Below, piece by piece: positions 4,013-15,850 of a stretch of DNA of 20,544 nucleotides (position 1 is its first letter; each line of letters starts with the position of its first letter). Source of the DNA: a virus (Duplodnaviria > Heunggongvirae > Uroviricota > Caudoviricetes); the IMG/VR virus record IMGVR_UViG_2529293044_000023. One strand, given 5' to 3'. The translations under genes were made by a program, and so were the position numbers. The notes beneath the pieces are model-generated. The model made no database searches, was not told the origin of the DNA, and saw only the letters and a list, made by a program, of their open reading frames with translations.

Positions 4013-4336
4013 AGCAACGCCTCCGCCAGTAACGGATTGCGTAGTTCTTATATTGGGAAGGGGAAAAAAGAAGGCCGCAGCGTAACTATCACTAATAAAT
4101 TCAGGACAGCCAGTGGCTACGGCTCAGTTTGGGTTGTGGCGGCCGGAATCGAACCGGCTTCCATCGGTGCGCTGCCGATTGCAGTACGCGCGGCGGTCAG
4201 CTATATGACTAGTATTTTCACTATCGCCTATCTGCTAGCTCGCCATTGAGCTTCACCACAACGATAAGAGCACTGCGCGGCACCTTTCACCAATTCCGCG
4301 AGGTCTGCGGGTTCAATGCTCTTACCTGTTGTGCAG

Positions 4337-4373
4337 AAAAAAAACCACACGGCAGCGAGTTTAAGCTGTGTGG
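4337..4373 (-). terminator. Rho-independent terminator on the minus strand (tR'-like late-leader terminator)
   Basis: Hairpin CCACAC-loop-GTGTGG (4345-4373) followed on the minus strand by a U8 run (complement of A8 at 4337-4344). Downstream minus-strand sequence TTTTTTTTCTGCACAACAGGTAAGAGCATTGA matches what I recall just after lambda tR'. Confidence 0.55.
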
Positions 4374-5511: not shown

Positions 5512-6342
5512 TTAGTTCACATCATCACCAAAACTTGTCACATTCTGAAAAGCAATATCGGCCTTACGCTCTTCCTGGTGGCAAATGTCAACCAGAGAAT
5601 CAAGAAACGGCTTCCAATTACGCGTCCATGTCCTGACATGTAGCTCGGGTATCCGCTTCAGTACAACTTTATATACTGTGGTAGACGGTACCGTGGAAAA
5701 TCCATTTCCGCTGCAACGTTCGCAGATTTTAAACACTGGCACACCACGCTCGCTTGTGGCTTTGCGGTCCAGTACCTCTCCCTTTCCACCACAACGACAC
5801 CTGGCACTTATCACTCCCTTCCCTTTACATACATCGCAAACGACTGGTACAACTTCCGTTACCTCTGTCCATTTCTCCCAGTCTGACGGTCGAACAGCAC
5901 GGGAGCGACTGGCCCAATATGGTGCTTTACCCCATGGGTATGAAACCTTACGAATGACCTGCTTACGGGGTGTTAGTCCGGTACCACTGCAACTATGGCA
6001 TGTTACGCTGGTGTCCGCCGATCGGGAATACTCAGCAAAAGCAAACTGCGCCAGTACCAGCATACACCAGCCAAATTCACCACCAGCTGCTTTACGCACA
6101 TTCTTCGGTGCAATTTCCATCGCGTGACGCGCCAGCGCTTGGACTGCCATCTGCTCATCAGTCTTGCTGATACCGGCCTTCCCGAAGAAGGCCGCCAAGC
6201 CAAACCGTTCACGATTGCTGGTGGTACCAATAGCCGCCATAACATCGGTGCCTGTAAGACGTTCCGGAGAGGTTCCTTTCACATCGTCGCCGATATACAT
6301 TCCCTGAGGACTGAAGTATTTTAGCGATGCCTCAAGCTTCAT
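5512..6342 (-). CDS. Q: Late-gene antitermination protein Q (lambda-Q family) with expanded Cys-rich region
   Basis: N-terminus (LTGTDVMAAIG...FGLAAFFGK), centre (VLAQFAFAEYSRSA...CHSCSGTG) and C-terminus (KPFLDSLVDICHQEERKADIAFQNV) parallel lambda Q as I recall it. 276 aa against 207 in lambda; carries four Cys-pair motifs (CHSCSGTG, CDVCKGKG, CRCGGKG, CERCSGNG) where lambda Q has two. Correct position upstream of the lysis cassette. Confidence 0.8.
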   Translation of the reverse strand: MKLEASLKYFSPQGMYIGDDVKGTSPERLTGTDVMAAIGTTSNRERFGLAAFFGKAGISKTDEQMAVQALARHAMEIAPKNVRKAAGGEFGWCMLVLAQFAFAEYSRSADTSVTCHSCSGTGLTPRKQVIRKVSYPWGKAPYWASRSRAVRPSDWEKWTEVTEVVPVVCDVCKGKGVISARCRCGGKGEVLDRKATSERGVPVFKICERCSGNGFSTVPSTTVYKVVLKRIPELHVRTWTRNWKPFLDSLVDICHQEERKADIAFQNVTSFGDDVN

Positions 6343-10556: not shown

Positions 10557-12818
<2,262 letters not shown>

Positions 12819-12821
12819 TCA

Positions 12822-13094
12822 TCATTCGTTTTTCATAACTGCCGCATTTGTGGCTGTGTGACTTCTACGTAACAAATCAGGGATTGCATCTTCAGGATGG
12901 GGATAAAGATCTGGTCTTAACCCATGAGGAGTAACTTTCCATTCCACAACTTCACATACACGCAAGACGAAACGAGCAGGAATTGTTCTTTTTGAAAACC
13001 ATTGGTTCACAGCTTGCGGCGTAACGCCTAGATTTCGCGCTATGGCATTTTGTGCAATTAGCTCACGAAGTGCGTCGTAATCATTTCCTTTCAT
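12822..13094 (-). CDS. Cro-like HTH transcriptional regulator (YdaS/Cro family)
   Basis: 90 aa with an HTH (NAIARNLGVTPQAVNQWFSKRTIP). Transcribed divergently from the cI-like repressor, 134 bp away, which is the Cro position. Confidence 0.7.
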   Translation of the reverse strand: MKGNDYDALRELIAQNAIARNLGVTPQAVNQWFSKRTIPARFVLRVCEVVEWKVTPHGLRPDLYPHPEDAIPDLLRRSHTATNAAVMKNE

Positions 13095-13228
13095 CGCAAC
13101 CCACCAATCTAAACTTTATAAATTCAAGATTACATCAAGTTTAAATTAACATGCAAGTCCACAAAAGATCGAATACACTAAAATCAAGTAAAAATTTATC
13201 GAAACCAAGTAACCAGCAAGGATTAACA
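13095..13228. promoter_or_regulatory. Divergent promoter/operator region between cro-like and cI-like genes (OR-like)
   Basis: AT-rich 134-bp intergenic region with repeated ATCAAGT-type motifs (13134-13140, 13183-13189, variant 13204-13210). Minus-strand TTATAA/TATAAA -10 candidate ~20 bp upstream of the cro start. Exact promoters not resolved. Confidence 0.45.
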
Positions 13229-13918
13229 ATGAAAAACTTAAAGAGCACTGAAAATCGAATTACAAAGCTGCTACAGGAGAAAGGCTGGAGCCAAGCAGAG
13301 CTGGCCCGAAAATTAGGTGTCAGCGCACAGTCCGTACAGTACTGGACAACAGGAAAAACATTTCCAAGGGGAAACCGGCTTGCCCAGTTATCCGAAATAA
13401 GTGGTTATCCGCAATCGTGGTTTTTAGGAGAAATCACGTCACGGCAGTTCTCTTCAAAGGAAAAACATCAAGCAAGAACTGACAGTGTGGTCTTTAACGT
13501 GCTCGATGTTGAGTTTAGTTGCGGCGATGGAACACATGTCCGTGGGGACTTTATCGATGTAGTTCGCTCAATCGAGCTTGATCCTGAATATGCCCGTCGC
13601 CTTGTTGGCAATAGAGCATTTCAAAACATAGAGATTGGTAACGCAAGAGGAGATAGTATGGCTCCAACAATAGCCCCAGGAGATCTTCTTTTTCTCGATA
13701 AAACAGTGAATTACTTTGATGGTGATGGCATTTATGCTTTTTGCTTTGATGGTGAATGCTACGTCAAAAGATTACAAAAGATAGGAAGTAAAATCATGGT
13801 GTTATCTGATAACCCAAATTACCAATCCTGGAGCATTGAAAAAGATGCTCTTGAGCTGCTTTATATCCAATCGAAGGTAATCTCATCTGTTCCATTCAAT
13901 ATAAATAGATTTGGTTAA
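13229..13918 (+). CDS. cI-like prophage repressor (N-terminal HTH_XRE, C-terminal LexA/S24 autopeptidase domain)
   Basis: HTH (WSQAELARKLGVSAQSVQYWTTGKTFP). S24 catalytic Ser in GDSMAPTI and Lys in ECYVKRL. AAGGA RBS 6 nt before the ATG at 13229; the track's 13151 start adds a low-complexity extension without an RBS and is rejected. Confidence 0.85.
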   Translation: MKNLKSTENRITKLLQEKGWSQAELARKLGVSAQSVQYWTTGKTFPRGNRLAQLSEISGYPQSWFLGEITSRQFSSKEKHQARTDSVVFNVLDVEFSCGDGTHVRGDFIDVVRSIELDPEYARRLVGNRAFQNIEIGNARGDSMAPTIAPGDLLFLDKTVNYFDGDGIYAFCFDGECYVKRLQKIGSKIMVLSDNPNYQSWSIEKDALELLYIQSKVISSVPFNINRFG

Positions 13919-13939
13919 TTATTGATTATTAAAGAAAAA

Positions 13940-14060
13940 TTTACAAATCAAGTAAAAGAGACGCAGAAATCAATTTTTTCTTGACAACTCCATCAATCAA
14001 GATCTAACATCACACCATCAATTTTGACTTGATTTATTGTTAATTTTAAATTGATGGTGA
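13940..14060 (+). promoter_or_regulatory. pL/OL-like early promoter-operator region driving the rightward early operon
   Basis: Two sigma70-like candidates: TTGACA (13981-13986) with TAACAT at 18-bp spacing, and TTGACT (14025-14030) with TAAATT (14047-14052) at 16-bp spacing. Operator-like motifs AAATCAAGTAAAA (13945-13957), ATCAAGA (13996-14002) and ACTTGAT (14027-14033) overlap them. Confidence 0.45.
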
Positions 14061-14064
14061 TTCA

Positions 14065-14493
14065 ATGAAAGATCTGACAACCGCTGAGATATCGAACTTA
14101 AACCACTTCGAAAAAGAATCCTTTGCATTAAATATTGCAAATCTGGTAGGTGCTGCTCGTACTTTCCATTTAATTGATGGTGATCGCTCTAAAGAATTGG
14201 GGTTTGAAGTCATGGAGTTTGTTCATGAATACGCCCTGTCTGCTACTTATCCATTACATAATCACATAATCAACAAACAACCAAATAAAATCCGCACCCA
14301 ACGCGAAGCCTGCGGCTTAACAACCGCCGAACTCGCCAGGCTGCTCGATCTCGATGAAGAAATTATCATCCAGTGGGAAAGCGGAGAGTACGAACCAACC
14401 ATCAGCATGCTTATCCCTCTGGCTAATGTTCTTGGCTGTGATCCAATGTTGTTATTGACTGATGCTTATAAACAAAATCAGGAGGAAGCATAA
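14065..14493 (+). CDS. HTH_XRE-domain protein (C-terminal Cro/C1-type HTH), first gene of the early operon
   Basis: 142 aa. C-terminal half IRTQREACGLTTAELARLLDLDEEIIIQWESGEYEPTISMLIPLANVLGCDP is a typical XRE HTH. N-terminal ~70 aa unrecognised. GGTGA RBS. Confidence 0.65.
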   Translation: MKDLTTAEISNLNHFEKESFALNIANLVGAARTFHLIDGDRSKELGFEVMEFVHEYALSATYPLHNHIINKQPNKIRTQREACGLTTAELARLLDLDEEIIIQWESGEYEPTISMLIPLANVLGCDPMLLLTDAYKQNQEEA

Positions 14494-14494
14494 G

Positions 14495-14686
14495 ATGAAA
14501 ATGTTCAAAGGCCTTACCAACGAACCGGAGACAGCTTTTCATCACATTGCCGTACTGCTTGAAGCGGGGTTAATCATTTCGGCTTCCGGTGATGAAGAAT
14601 GTGATGAACTTTCGGATGATATCTTTTTACTGGCACAACAATACGCCAAAAGCGCATGCGATGCATTTAAGGAGCAAAGAACATGA
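14495..14686 (+). CDS. Hypothetical small acidic protein (63 aa)
   Basis: ATG preceded by AGGAGG. The track start 14462 is an upstream alternative without an RBS. Confidence 0.5.
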   Translation: MKMFKGLTNEPETAFHHIAVLLEAGLIISASGDEECDELSDDIFLLAQQYAKSACDAFKEQRT

Positions 14687-14874
14687 TAACTCCATTAAAT
14701 ATTCTTGAGGAAGTGGCGGCACAAATAAAAGAGAATACATCAATGCTTGAATTTATATTTAAGAATTCGCCCGACCAAGGAGAGACAGACGATTATTTAT
14801 GCTGTCTCATTCGCTCCATGAATAAGACCTGTGAAATGGCTTACGAGTATATAGAAACACTACGCAACGAATAA
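14683..14874 (+). CDS. Hypothetical protein (63 aa)
   Basis: AAGGAG RBS; start overlaps the previous stop as ATGA, suggesting translational coupling. Confidence 0.5.
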   Translation: MITPLNILEEVAAQIKENTSMLEFIFKNSPDQGETDDYLCCLIRSMNKTCEMAYEYIETLRNE

Positions 14875-14956
14875 AGAACACTCAGTAAAAAATCACACAT
14901 AAAAACATGACGGCCTCTGGTCGTGGATTTCCACAACCAGAAAATAATGGTGATGC

Positions 14957-15055
14957 ATGAAAAATAGAAACGCTTATAAAACCGCATTATTAATGGCTAA
15001 TGCAGGATACTGGTCAGTTGCAATACTGTTTCTCAGAAAAGCATACGGGAAATAA
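14957..15055 (+). CDS. Possible small hydrophobic peptide (32 aa)
   Basis: MKNRNAYKTALLMANAGYWSVAILFLRKAYGK has one predicted TM-like segment. Weak RBS. Below the ORF-track size cutoff. Confidence 0.25.
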   Translation: MKNRNAYKTALLMANAGYWSVAILFLRKAYGK

Positions 15056-15058
15056 CAA

Positions 15059-15418
15059 ATGGCATGTACAACCATTTATAAAGATCGTCGCCGCATGGTA
15101 ACAGCGGCACTCCGGCGGATGCAACGTAAAACAGGTAGTAATCTGCTCGTCGTTGACCTCCCGGACGGAGAAATAACAACGATAGAAATAACTGAACAGT
15201 TCATGAACCAGTTGTTATTACGATTTGAGGGTCTTACCCGTGTTGAATATGGACGGACGGAAGGAGAAGCAACAATCCGTACCGCATACCAGAATGCCAT
15301 CGGTATTAATCAACACACGGAATATCTCACTGAATCAGGGAAACTGATAGTGGACGGCCTTTTAAAAGAGGTTGTTGACTACGTAAAAGAGAAATATATC
15401 AGTGGAGGAATTAACTGA
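15059..15418 (+). CDS. Hypothetical protein (119 aa)
   Basis: ATG-initiated ORF in the early operon; its stop overlaps the next start. Confidence 0.55.
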   Translation: MACTTIYKDRRRMVTAALRRMQRKTGSNLLVVDLPDGEITTIEITEQFMNQLLLRFEGLTRVEYGRTEGEATIRTAYQNAIGINQHTEYLTESGKLIVDGLLKEVVDYVKEKYISGGIN

Positions 15419-15627
15419 TGTCTGATTTATCCCCTCTTATACACGAAAAAGTACAGATCATTATGACGATTGAAAATGGTCAGGTAATAAATACCCGTAA
15501 AGTTCACAATAACGAGATGATTGCCAGCATGGATACCTTCTTGTGGATAGCAAAGAAAGCGGGATATCAGGTAATCGCTCCTGATCTGGAGGAAATCGGT
15601 GACATTAACAGCAATACGAATTCCTGA
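15418..15627 (+). CDS. Hypothetical protein (69 aa)
   Basis: GGAGG RBS; start overlaps the upstream stop (TGATG). Confidence 0.55.
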   Translation: MSDLSPLIHEKVQIIMTIENGQVINTRKVHNNEMIASMDTFLWIAKKAGYQVIAPDLEEIGDINSNTNS

Positions 15628-15850
15628 GTGGGTGCACCTGCAGGCGGTCCGTGTTCTCCGCCAGTTCAGAGCCAGACGAATTCATCCCTGTCGTATGCAC
15701 GGCTCCGGAAACCTGAGTCTGAGGGTTAATCGCCGCTGGCGGCTGCTGTCCCGAGACGGCGGCCAGAACTGGGAAGTAATGAGCCATGAACGATACAGCA
15801 AAGTTAAGGACCGGAAATGAACAATAAACCTTCAAACCAAAAGGAGAGTA

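Follow-up and report, generated by a model that had tools for sequence, protein, structure and literature searches.

Which protein is made first from the early-left operon of a lambdoid prophage, if the gene standing in the position of lambda N does not look like N? We analyzed this question in a lambdoid Escherichia coli prophage of the phi467/P27-like kind, represented by a DNA stretch of 20,544 nucleotides (IMG/VR record IMGVR_UViG_2529293044_000023), the whole of which is called the window here. Immediately 3' of the cI-type repressor gene, on the cI/int strand, a cassette of three open reading frames (ORFs) occupies the lambda N slot: ORF1 (14065–14493), ORF2 (14495–14686), and ORF3 (14683–14874), all on the plus strand. 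A sequence-only reading had described the product of ORF1 as an unrecognised N-terminal domain joined to a C-terminal XRE-type helix-turn-helix (HTH), followed by two small ORFs. Our comparisons indicate that ORF1 is a chimeric gene made of a predicted helical hairpin and an acidic XRE-fold domain, that ORF2 and ORF3 are free-standing modules of the hairpin kind, and that the XRE-fold domain more likely has a protein partner than an operator.

The three ORFs were found exactly where the sequence-only reading had placed them, and the same three coding sequences were annotated by RefSeq/GenBank in near-identical prophages and in phage phi467, a Shiga toxin 2f (Stx2f) phage. Over the stretch searched (12700–15500), phi467 and prophages from strains producing Stx2f showed 99.9% identity to the window. 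ORF1–ORF3 shared 97–100% identity with the phi467 genes, ORF1 being 100% identical to CUW01244. ORF1 starts with ATG and encodes 142 aa with an isoelectric point (pI) of 4.7 and a net charge of −12, while ORF2 and ORF3 encode 63 aa each, both with a net charge of −7. The claimed translational coupling of ORF2 and ORF3 was borne out by the ORF1/ORF2 junction TAAgATG and the ORF2/ORF3 overlap ATGA; ORF2 starts 1 nt past the ORF1 stop, with AGGAGG 10 nt upstream. In the XRE part of ORF1, 25 synonymous and 7 non-synonymous codon changes separated the window from locus L078, and pairs of ORF3 alleles differed by 16 vs. 8, 12 vs. 3, and 11 vs. 4 synonymous and non-synonymous changes, respectively; the available ORF2 alleles were too alike for a selection estimate. 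Reading frames were intact in all alleles seen. Homologues of ORF2 and ORF3 (37–47% identity) adjoin each other in phages SaltyDalty and Fraca as well. Because of this adjacency and of the synonymous excess in the XRE part and in ORF3, ORF1–ORF3 are regarded as real genes and not chance ORFs.

The AlphaFold2 model of ORF1, built on a 31-sequence alignment, consisted of a hairpin, a linker, and a five-helix XRE domain. The N-terminal domain (aa 1–72; 14065–14280, plus strand), assigned to hairpin type 'A1', is predicted to form two antiparallel helices (aa 14–36 and 40–67) with a predicted local distance difference test score (pLDDT) of about 83 for the hairpin and a low-confidence linker at aa 62–72; its net charge of −4 makes it acidic to neutral. 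The XRE-fold domain (aa 73–142; 14281–14490, plus strand) was modeled with helices at 75–82, 87–93, 98–106, 113–123, and 127–141, with pLDDT of about 70–89 over most of its length and about 40 for the last helix. Residues 76–127 matched Pfam HTH_3 (PF01381; E 3.5e-11, 43.4 bits vs. a cut-off of 23), and the top Foldseek matches were XRE domains with template modeling scores of about 0.8 on the target. The description of the N-terminal domain as unrecognised still holds: its first ~70 residues belonged to no Pfam family, and neither the PDB sequence search nor the fold searches matched this part. Pfam, PHROGs, NCBIfam, PADLOC, PDB sequences, and Foldseek on PDB and BFVD returned only generic XRE matches for ORF1, including P22 C2, 434, CylR2, SinR, and MBF1-like proteins.

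The ORF1 family appears to be narrow and confined to prophages of the E. coli group. Homologues were found essentially in E. coli and Shigella and occasionally in Salmonella, forming about 15 clusters at 50% identity among 1.84 billion proteins; species-representative genomes contained no true matches. In every locus examined, the homologue was the first gene after cI, as in phiP27 (gene L10, annotated 'unknown') and in many Stx1a, Stx2a, and Stx2d phages. Family members are nearly invariant in the C-terminal XRE domain but differ in the N-terminal ~70 residues, of which there are at least six types that do not align with one another. Many of them (e.g., WP_012816784) have two XRE domains and reach about 230 aa. 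A paper on regulatory regions of Stx phages (PMC8951638) described a 'Clade VIII CI' that is atypical in having two HTH_3 domains but no S24 peptidase domain; it may be the two-XRE form of the ORF1 family mistaken for a repressor. A search of the supplement of that paper found no 'Clade VIII CI' accessions. Among the distant ORF1 matches, P0142, P0148, P0149, and P0151 are proteins of 700–1000 aa with 8–10 tandem XRE domains scoring high against the ORF1 XRE domain.

The division of ORF1 into a variable and an invariant half was reflected in a mosaic survey of 208 loci from viral contigs and genomes, in which six types and 71 distinct pairs were represented. In all 208 loci, without exception, the type of the adjacent cI matched that of the ORF1-homologue hairpin 1:1. 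The genes downstream behaved differently: free-hairpin sets (ORF2 with ORF3, a 66-aa ORF resembling hairpin type A, a 121-aa protein, or an 80-aa ORF with the 121-aa protein) were found behind every hairpin and cI type, and at least one free hairpin gene was kept in nearly every locus. The junction coincided with the border between the hairpin and the XRE domain. The window and locus L084 have unrelated cro–cI–hairpin modules, yet their XRE parts differ at only 3 of 168 nt, and both have ORF2 and ORF3. Since the hairpin tracks the cI type while the downstream free hairpins assort independently, ORF1 is a chimeric gene and serves as the joint at which immunity and early-left modules recombine; its hairpin half travels with cro, cI, and the operators, and its XRE half with the downstream early genes.

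The 1:1 link might reflect recognition of the cognate CI or Cro by the hairpin, but tight physical linkage predicts the same pattern, and we give the link low weight in this respect. In a Klebsiella phage, cI is 79% identical to that of the window, yet the operon starts with an ORF3-like protein. In locus L216, a hairpin–XRE gene of the ORF3 clade (P0283) stands beside a cI6-like repressor. Because of these two counter-examples and the free assortment of the downstream hairpins, functional coupling between hairpin and cI was downgraded. The L216 locus also carries, between its cI-like and hairpin–XRE genes, a 385-aa HSDR_N (restriction-endonuclease-like) gene (728–1885) in the lambda rexAB slot, a candidate defence moron.

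Treated as unrelated small ORFs in the sequence-only reading, ORF2 and ORF3 proved to be related hairpin modules, and profile comparisons point to them as free-standing versions of ORF1-type N-terminal domains. ORF2 matched phrog_4587 at E 1.9e-33, and the ORF1 N-terminus matched this same family at E 2.9e-7. ORF2, assigned to the 'B' clade, was similar to 'B'-type N-terminal domains in phmmer (E ~1e-6), and hhalign of B against the ORF2 family gave 95% (E 4e-8). Type A, that of ORF1, aligned with free-standing A-like small ORFs at 97.7%, the free A-like ORFs with B at 86%, and A with ORF2 only remotely (E ~0.05). Direct BLAST of the ORF1 N-terminus against ORF2 revealed no similarity, the link between them requiring profiles. 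ORF3, a free-standing hairpin of a separate clade, was modeled by AlphaFold2 as two helices (4–28 and 37–62; pLDDT 87.6). In the exhaustive search it was related to P0283, a 142-aa protein that shares 57% identity with ORF3 over its first 58 residues (E 5e-20) and consists of an XRE domain thereafter, and to the N4-type N-terminal domain of P0147, a member of the ORF1 family (33% identity, E 2e-9). A kinship of ORF3 with the 'C'-type N-terminal domain was unsupported (hhalign E 0.013), its true relatives being the N4 type and P0283. The clades of ORF2 and ORF3 thus occur fused to the same XRE domain in other prophages.

By sequence, the hairpins formed four unjoined clades: A with free A-like ORFs, B, and ORF2; ORF3 with N4 and P0283; C with D; and E alone. 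All of them appear to share a common architecture and position, and we claim homology only within clades. When the ORF3 hairpin was used as a fold query, the only neighbours were designed proteins, helical bundles and hairpins that oligomerise, all at E >0.3, and the search was uninformative. Neither ORF2 nor ORF3 matched any characterised homologue in Pfam, NCBIfam, PADLOC, PDB, and Foldseek searches. Genes resembling ORF2 and ORF3 head the same operon without ORF1 in SaltyDalty, Fraca, and a Klebsiella phage. In many other loci, a 121-aa protein is encoded right after the ORF1 homologue (L005, 3648–4013; L008, 3864–4229); in this protein, a C-terminal A-like hairpin follows an unrelated N-terminal domain (MKKFENITV...), and the hairpin module is therefore also fused to non-XRE partners.

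The cI-type repressor gene (XRE HTH and S24 peptidase; 13229–13918, plus strand; Pfam Peptidase_S24 9e-17, HTH_3 7e-9; RefSeq start at window position 13229) is presumed to control the promoter ahead of the cassette. The 146-bp gap between cI and ORF1 contained the best sigma-70-like site of 12700–15200, a strong site of the leftward early promoter (pL) type with the structure TTGACA-18 nt-TAACAT (13981–14010, plus strand; 10 of 12 matches in the promoter scan). The first early gene was thus located, as had been proposed, in the lambda N position, with cI on the same strand and a promoter in between. An operator-like repeat, AAATCAAGTAAAA, was found 5' of the −35 hexamer (13945–13957), 100% identical to 13181–13193 in the cro/cI divergent region. 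Two operator-like 19-mers, 14017–14035 and 14038–14056, each 89% complementary over 19 nt, were inverted copies, in mirrored order, of 13181–13199 and 13133–13151 in the cro/cI region; they span about +1 to +40 of the predicted transcript. Such a mirrored order is the look of the left and right operator sets of one repressor. Because the repeats flanking the promoter mirror those of the cro/cI divergent region, the cassette probably forms the head of a CI-controlled early-left operon, in agreement with the earlier proposal of a repressor-controlled unit, and CI would bind the operator-like repeats at the pL-type promoter.

A perfect 12-bp inverted repeat (CACCATCAATTT / AAATTGATGGTG; 14013–14024 and 14048–14059, 100%) overlaps the operator-like elements ahead of ORF1 and was partly retained in loci sharing the cI type. 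As RNA, 14013–14059 (plus strand) folded at −17.5 kcal/mol with a z value of −3.8, none of 200 shuffles being as stable, and the predicted leader hairpin would bury the ORF1 Shine–Dalgarno sequence GGTGA (14054–14058); the inverted repeat may act as DNA or as RNA. Searching the window against Rfam revealed no known RNA. In relatives of other cI types, TTGACA occurred at the same position, flanked by different, type-specific repeats or operators, and several relatives had a clear rho-independent terminator between cI and the pL-type promoter. Because relatives keep TTGACA, type-specific repeats, and terminators after cI, the cassette is best regarded as an early repressor-controlled transcription unit and not as an extension of cI expressed in the lysogen.

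Clear homology of the first gene to a characterised antiterminator or Cro-type repressor would have refuted the sequence-only reading, and searches of Pfam, NCBIfam, PDB sequences, and folds revealed none. More generally, no characterised antiterminator, Cro, CII, antirepressor, or defence family matched ORF1–ORF3 in the searches run. The label 'transcriptional repressor DicA' in phi467 is a transferred annotation: ORF1 reached 33.8 bits against the DicA model (NCBIfam NF007257), with a cut-off of 101, and only the XRE part aligned. The CII-like label of phrog_4836 is likewise an inherited name; no CII family of Pfam or NCBIfam was matched, and the 1e-58 match of ORF1 to phrog_4836 means membership of that uncharacterised cluster only. 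An MqsA-type antitoxin was rejected at 14.2 bits (cut-off 30), the N-terminal domain being predicted as helical and without the cysteine pairs expected of a zinc ribbon. The Cro slot is held by a YdaS-family cro-like gene of 90 aa on the minus strand (12822–13094; Pfam YdaS/P22_Cro-like), whereas ORF1 encodes a two-domain protein on the cI strand. PADLOC, whose models cover defence and not anti-defence systems, matched only the HTH region of ORF1 (RmrA, capH, HTH_VI) and neither ORF2 nor ORF3. The functions suggested in the sequence-only reading, an antirepressor-like second switch or an immunity or anti-defence module, thus gained no support from these searches.

As in lambda, the first gene follows a leftward promoter, here presumably CI-controlled, on the cI/int strand, and its promoter-proximal part belongs to the immunity module. 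A lambda N-type antiterminator was nevertheless rejected for ORF1, since its N-terminus is acidic to neutral, matched no antiterminator in Pfam or PHROGs, and is accompanied by no repeated nut-like element. ORF1 differs from N in being acidic and lacking an arginine-rich motif, and the window phage has a Q-type antiterminator. In the E. coli lambdoid prophage Qin, the dicA–ydfA/ydfB/ydfC–dicF–dicB operon likewise runs leftward under repressor control and opens with small uncharacterised ORFs right behind the repressor gene. However, ORF1 resembles DicA via the generic XRE fold only (37% identity over 64 aa), and YdfA, YdfB, and YdfC showed no similarity to any hairpin clade (profile E ≥0.04).

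Whether the XRE-fold domain binds DNA was particularly analyzed. Its core of 57 residues has a net charge of −7 and a pI of about 4.1, and all 58 distinct XRE sequences of the family have net charges between −4 and −8. By comparison, 191 XRE domains of the nearest non-family proteins had a median charge of +1, with only 7 of them at −7 or below, and the HTH region of the window cI has a net charge of +6. Helix 3 of ORF1 reads D97-E98-E99-I-I-I-Q-W-E; among background XRE domains, only 10 of 173 had at least two acidic residues within the first three recognition-helix positions. The nearest solved DNA-binding XRE domains, the N-terminal domains of the P22 C2 and 434 repressors, share with ORF1 the five-helix fold, the Q-W-E of helix 3, and a C-terminal 'C-x-P'. 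P22 C2 has solved operator complexes (e.g., 3jxb) in which S-N-V contacts bases. In the alignment, D97-E98-E99 of ORF1 stand opposite this S-N-V at the start of the recognition helix, and the basic helix 1 of P22 C2 is largely neutralised in ORF1, with most of its basic residues gone. No 10-mer common to all six immunity types was found outside the gene within 3.5–5 kb, which is a weak test for short degenerate half-sites.

Because of the net charge of −7 and the D-E-E start of the recognition helix, operator binding by this domain is doubtful, although we allow it a substantial minority chance. The strong purifying selection on the domain argues that it has a conserved partner, more likely a protein than an operator. 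Of the 'XRE-type HTH' of the sequence-only reading, the fold was therefore supported by the Pfam HTH_3 match and the model, whereas a standard DNA binder is probably not what this strongly acidic domain represents, and the label of DNA-binding regulator becomes doubtful.

Our preferred explanation, the best available though held tentatively, is that the products of the cassette are hairpin-module proteins acting on other proteins and not occupants of operators. The cassette would be silent in the lysogen and would give the first product after derepression or infection. The three products are small acidic proteins, each built on a predicted antiparallel two-helix hairpin unit of about 55 residues. 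The hairpins are proposed as interaction or oligomerisation modules because a lone hairpin of 60 residues must bury its hydrophobic face in a partner. The ORF1 hairpin may oligomerise or bind a partner and present the acidic XRE domain via a floppy linker; this domain, in turn, may offer a conserved surface on which a basic partner docks, e.g., a phage or host DNA-binding protein. ORF2 and ORF3 would serve as autonomous hairpin modules, and the three proteins together might tune the early decision or host take-over. CI control, the non-binding of operators, the protein-binding mode, and an effect on the choice between lysis and lysogeny are all steps that we infer.

Several facts weigh against this explanation. 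The Pfam HTH_3 match of ORF1 is solid, and the coexistence of one-XRE and two-XRE forms looks like the monomer/covalent-dimer logic of DNA binders. Helix 3 shares Gln103-Trp104-Glu105 with P22 C2, a DNA-binding protein that also has the acidic loop following this helix. There are DNA-binding XRE domains of an acidic kind, and the background set contained 7 (of 191) as acidic as that of ORF1. Finally, the partner protein is postulated, and the proposed function is therefore a class-level guess.

A rival explanation is a classical second regulator resembling SinR/SinI of Bacillus subtilis, in which ORF1 would dimerise via its hairpin and bind a conserved operator via its XRE domain as an early repressor or activator, with ORF2 and ORF3 acting as SinI-like antagonists in mixed hairpin bundles. 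We consider this possible but rather doubtful. Besides the HTH_3 match, the XRE fold, and the one-XRE and two-XRE variants, it would account for the purifying selection on helix 3 and for the free hairpins of the same clade that many loci carry directly behind the fused gene (e.g., A2 followed by a 66-aa A-like ORF of ~45% identity, and B by ORF2). SinR/SinI (PDB 1b0n) was among the fold matches of ORF1 and likewise combines, in one protein, an XRE fold with a helical-hairpin domain, a small neighbour gene encoding a free hairpin homologue. In ORF1, however, the two predicted domains stand in reversed order (hairpin N-terminal), the XRE domain is strongly acidic, and the hairpins have no sequence homology to SinI. 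The D-E-E start of the recognition helix, the domain charge of −7, and the failure of the 10-mer search, weak as that test is, to reveal a conserved candidate operator speak against the regulator. So does the arrangement in the window, where ORF2 is of a different subtype than the ORF1 hairpin, and ORF3 belongs to an unlinked clade. Moreover, free-hairpin sets assort with all types of N-terminal domain, independently of the fused type, and free hairpins occur also in phages without an XRE-fused partner, contrary to strict SinR/SinI logic. An anti-defence or host take-over battery of the acr–aca kind is unlikely. Under it, variable small acidic proteins would neutralise host defence or nucleoid proteins as infection begins, with the HTH-like domain as a regulatory or anchoring part fused to one effector. 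The cassette comprises the first genes of an early operon; a conserved HTH-like domain stands beside variable small genes, whose ORF2- and ORF3-type products are small, acidic (−7 each), diverse, and shuffled independently; and the SaltyDalty operon carries a Lar-like restriction-alleviation gene. In fused anti-CRISPR/Aca proteins of the AcrIIA1 type, a conserved HTH is fused to an effector domain and binds its own promoter. ORF1 resembles them in the fusion of an HTH domain to a variable small domain, in the stand-alone parts and small acidic genes alongside, and in very early expression; yet the promoter inverted repeat of the window changes with the cI type and not with the XRE domain. Aca proteins bind DNA, to which the ORF1 XRE domain looks ill-suited. 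The family is also confined to a narrow set of E. coli-group prophages, and no similarity to a known anti-defence protein was detected, no dedicated anti-defence library having been searched.

A further reading, which we regard as quite unlikely, is that ORF1-type proteins are acidic XRE-fold decoys with exchangeable hairpin specificity modules and not transcription factors. As the first products of pL, they would sequester basic DNA-binding proteins, of the repressor type or otherwise, whether encoded by the phage itself, by prophages in the same cell, or by the host, with ORF2 and ORF3 widening the range of targets. Less probable again is an immunity-specific antirepressor, in which the hairpin would bind the cognate CI or Cro so that ORF1 locks the lytic choice once pL fires, and ORF2 and ORF3 would target the repressors of other immunity types in prophage cross-talk. 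The strict 1:1 correspondence of hairpin and cI types in 208 loci would fit it, as would the relatedness of ORF2 and ORF3 to the hairpins found with two other cI types, although their identity to those N-terminal domains is only 30–33%. Enterobacterial prophages are known to encode small antirepressors acting in trans, and members of this class (Gifsy GfoA family, Qin Rem, VP882 Qtip-type) are encoded near the immunity region, bind the repressor, and have a specificity tied to the repressor type (PMC3121763; PMC10432266; Rem preprint, bioRxiv 10.1101/2023.04.14.536235). The window genes, however, lie behind a CI-repressed promoter and not under LexA or another outside signal. Physical linkage predicts the 1:1 pattern as well, the hairpin lying ~150 bp from cI with type-specific operators between them, and the coupling breaks down in more distant phages, as the Klebsiella phage and L216 illustrate. 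A Rem-type antirepressor, the one compared, was rejected: the profiles of the hairpin clades showed no similarity to Qin Rem (E ≥0.7). The least credible proposal, to which we give almost no weight, is a passive mosaic filler, with the XRE segment retained chiefly because it offers homology for recombination between the immunity and early-left modules, and with the hairpin ORFs as dispensable remnants. The junction always at the domain border and the 3 differences in 168 nt between the XRE parts of the window and L084, despite unrelated immunity modules, are what a filler would show. The strong synonymous excess in the XRE domain and ORF3, the intact frames in all alleles seen, the translational coupling with good ribosome-binding sites, and the free hairpin gene kept in nearly every locus are not.

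The rest of the window is that of a lambdoid prophage. The minus strand carries the helicase and primase replication genes, a Q-type antiterminator (5512–6342), and the lysis genes. On the plus strand, ORF1–ORF3 are followed by more small early genes, an ORF6N protein, and, at the far end, the integrase. After ORF3 there is a 184-bp gap (14875–15058) with hairpins at about 14917–14940 and 14982–15005; nutL/nutR sites were considered in this gap and dropped, no second copy being found in the window or in an uninterrupted relative. The gap also contains an unannotated 32-aa ORF (14957–15055) with a hydrophobic core (MKNRNAYKTALLMANAGYWSVAILFLRKAYGK), which may encode a small membrane peptide or have arisen by chance. 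The 119-aa protein encoded next (15059–15418; phrog_1737) starts with an arginine-rich YKDRRRMVTAALRRMQRKTG, reminiscent of N-type antiterminators, and may be a better N-like candidate than ORF1. It is followed by a 69-aa protein (15418–15627) matching the C-terminal part of 'anti-repressor' PHROGs (E 2.6e-5), the ORF of which overlaps a ParE-like toxin ORF (15599–15820; PF24732, 1e-19). These two could represent a toxin–antitoxin pair or an antirepressor; BLAST revealed no similarity to Rem of Qin.

An element of the IS21 family was found at 10788–12740 with a 6-bp target duplication (istA, 10873–11895, with an rve domain; istB, 11892–12674). It is inserted about 20 codons into a 97-aa gene directly downstream of cro and probably blocks the rightward early operon; for this reason, this copy of the prophage may be locked in. 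The insertion is missing from phi467. The window prophage lacks the stx2f A and B genes and two tRNA genes, which lie between the Q antiterminator and the lysis genes in 99%-identical relatives; at 4051–4337, 287 bp stand in place of 2.5 kb (compare L001, 3052–5557).

ORF1–ORF3 are a variant within the phage early XRE-family proteins, a family so far labelled as regulators. Existing annotations ('DicA', 'CII-like', 'HTH domain protein') do not reflect the hairpin–XRE chimera, the free hairpin copies, or the recombination joint, and, as far as our searches went, we found no description of these in the literature. If the XRE domain proves not to bind DNA, this would be a warning for the automatic annotation of phage 'HTH regulators'. 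The cassette or a variant of it is the first early-left product across a group of E. coli prophages, including phages converting to Stx1, Stx2a, Stx2d, Stx2e (P27), and Stx2f, and in such phages the lambda picture with N first does not apply. Were the decoy proposal true, the cassette would set the commitment to induction and the competition between prophages in these Shiga-toxin phage lineages. How the Stx phages of this group commit to induction bears, in turn, on the release of the toxin.

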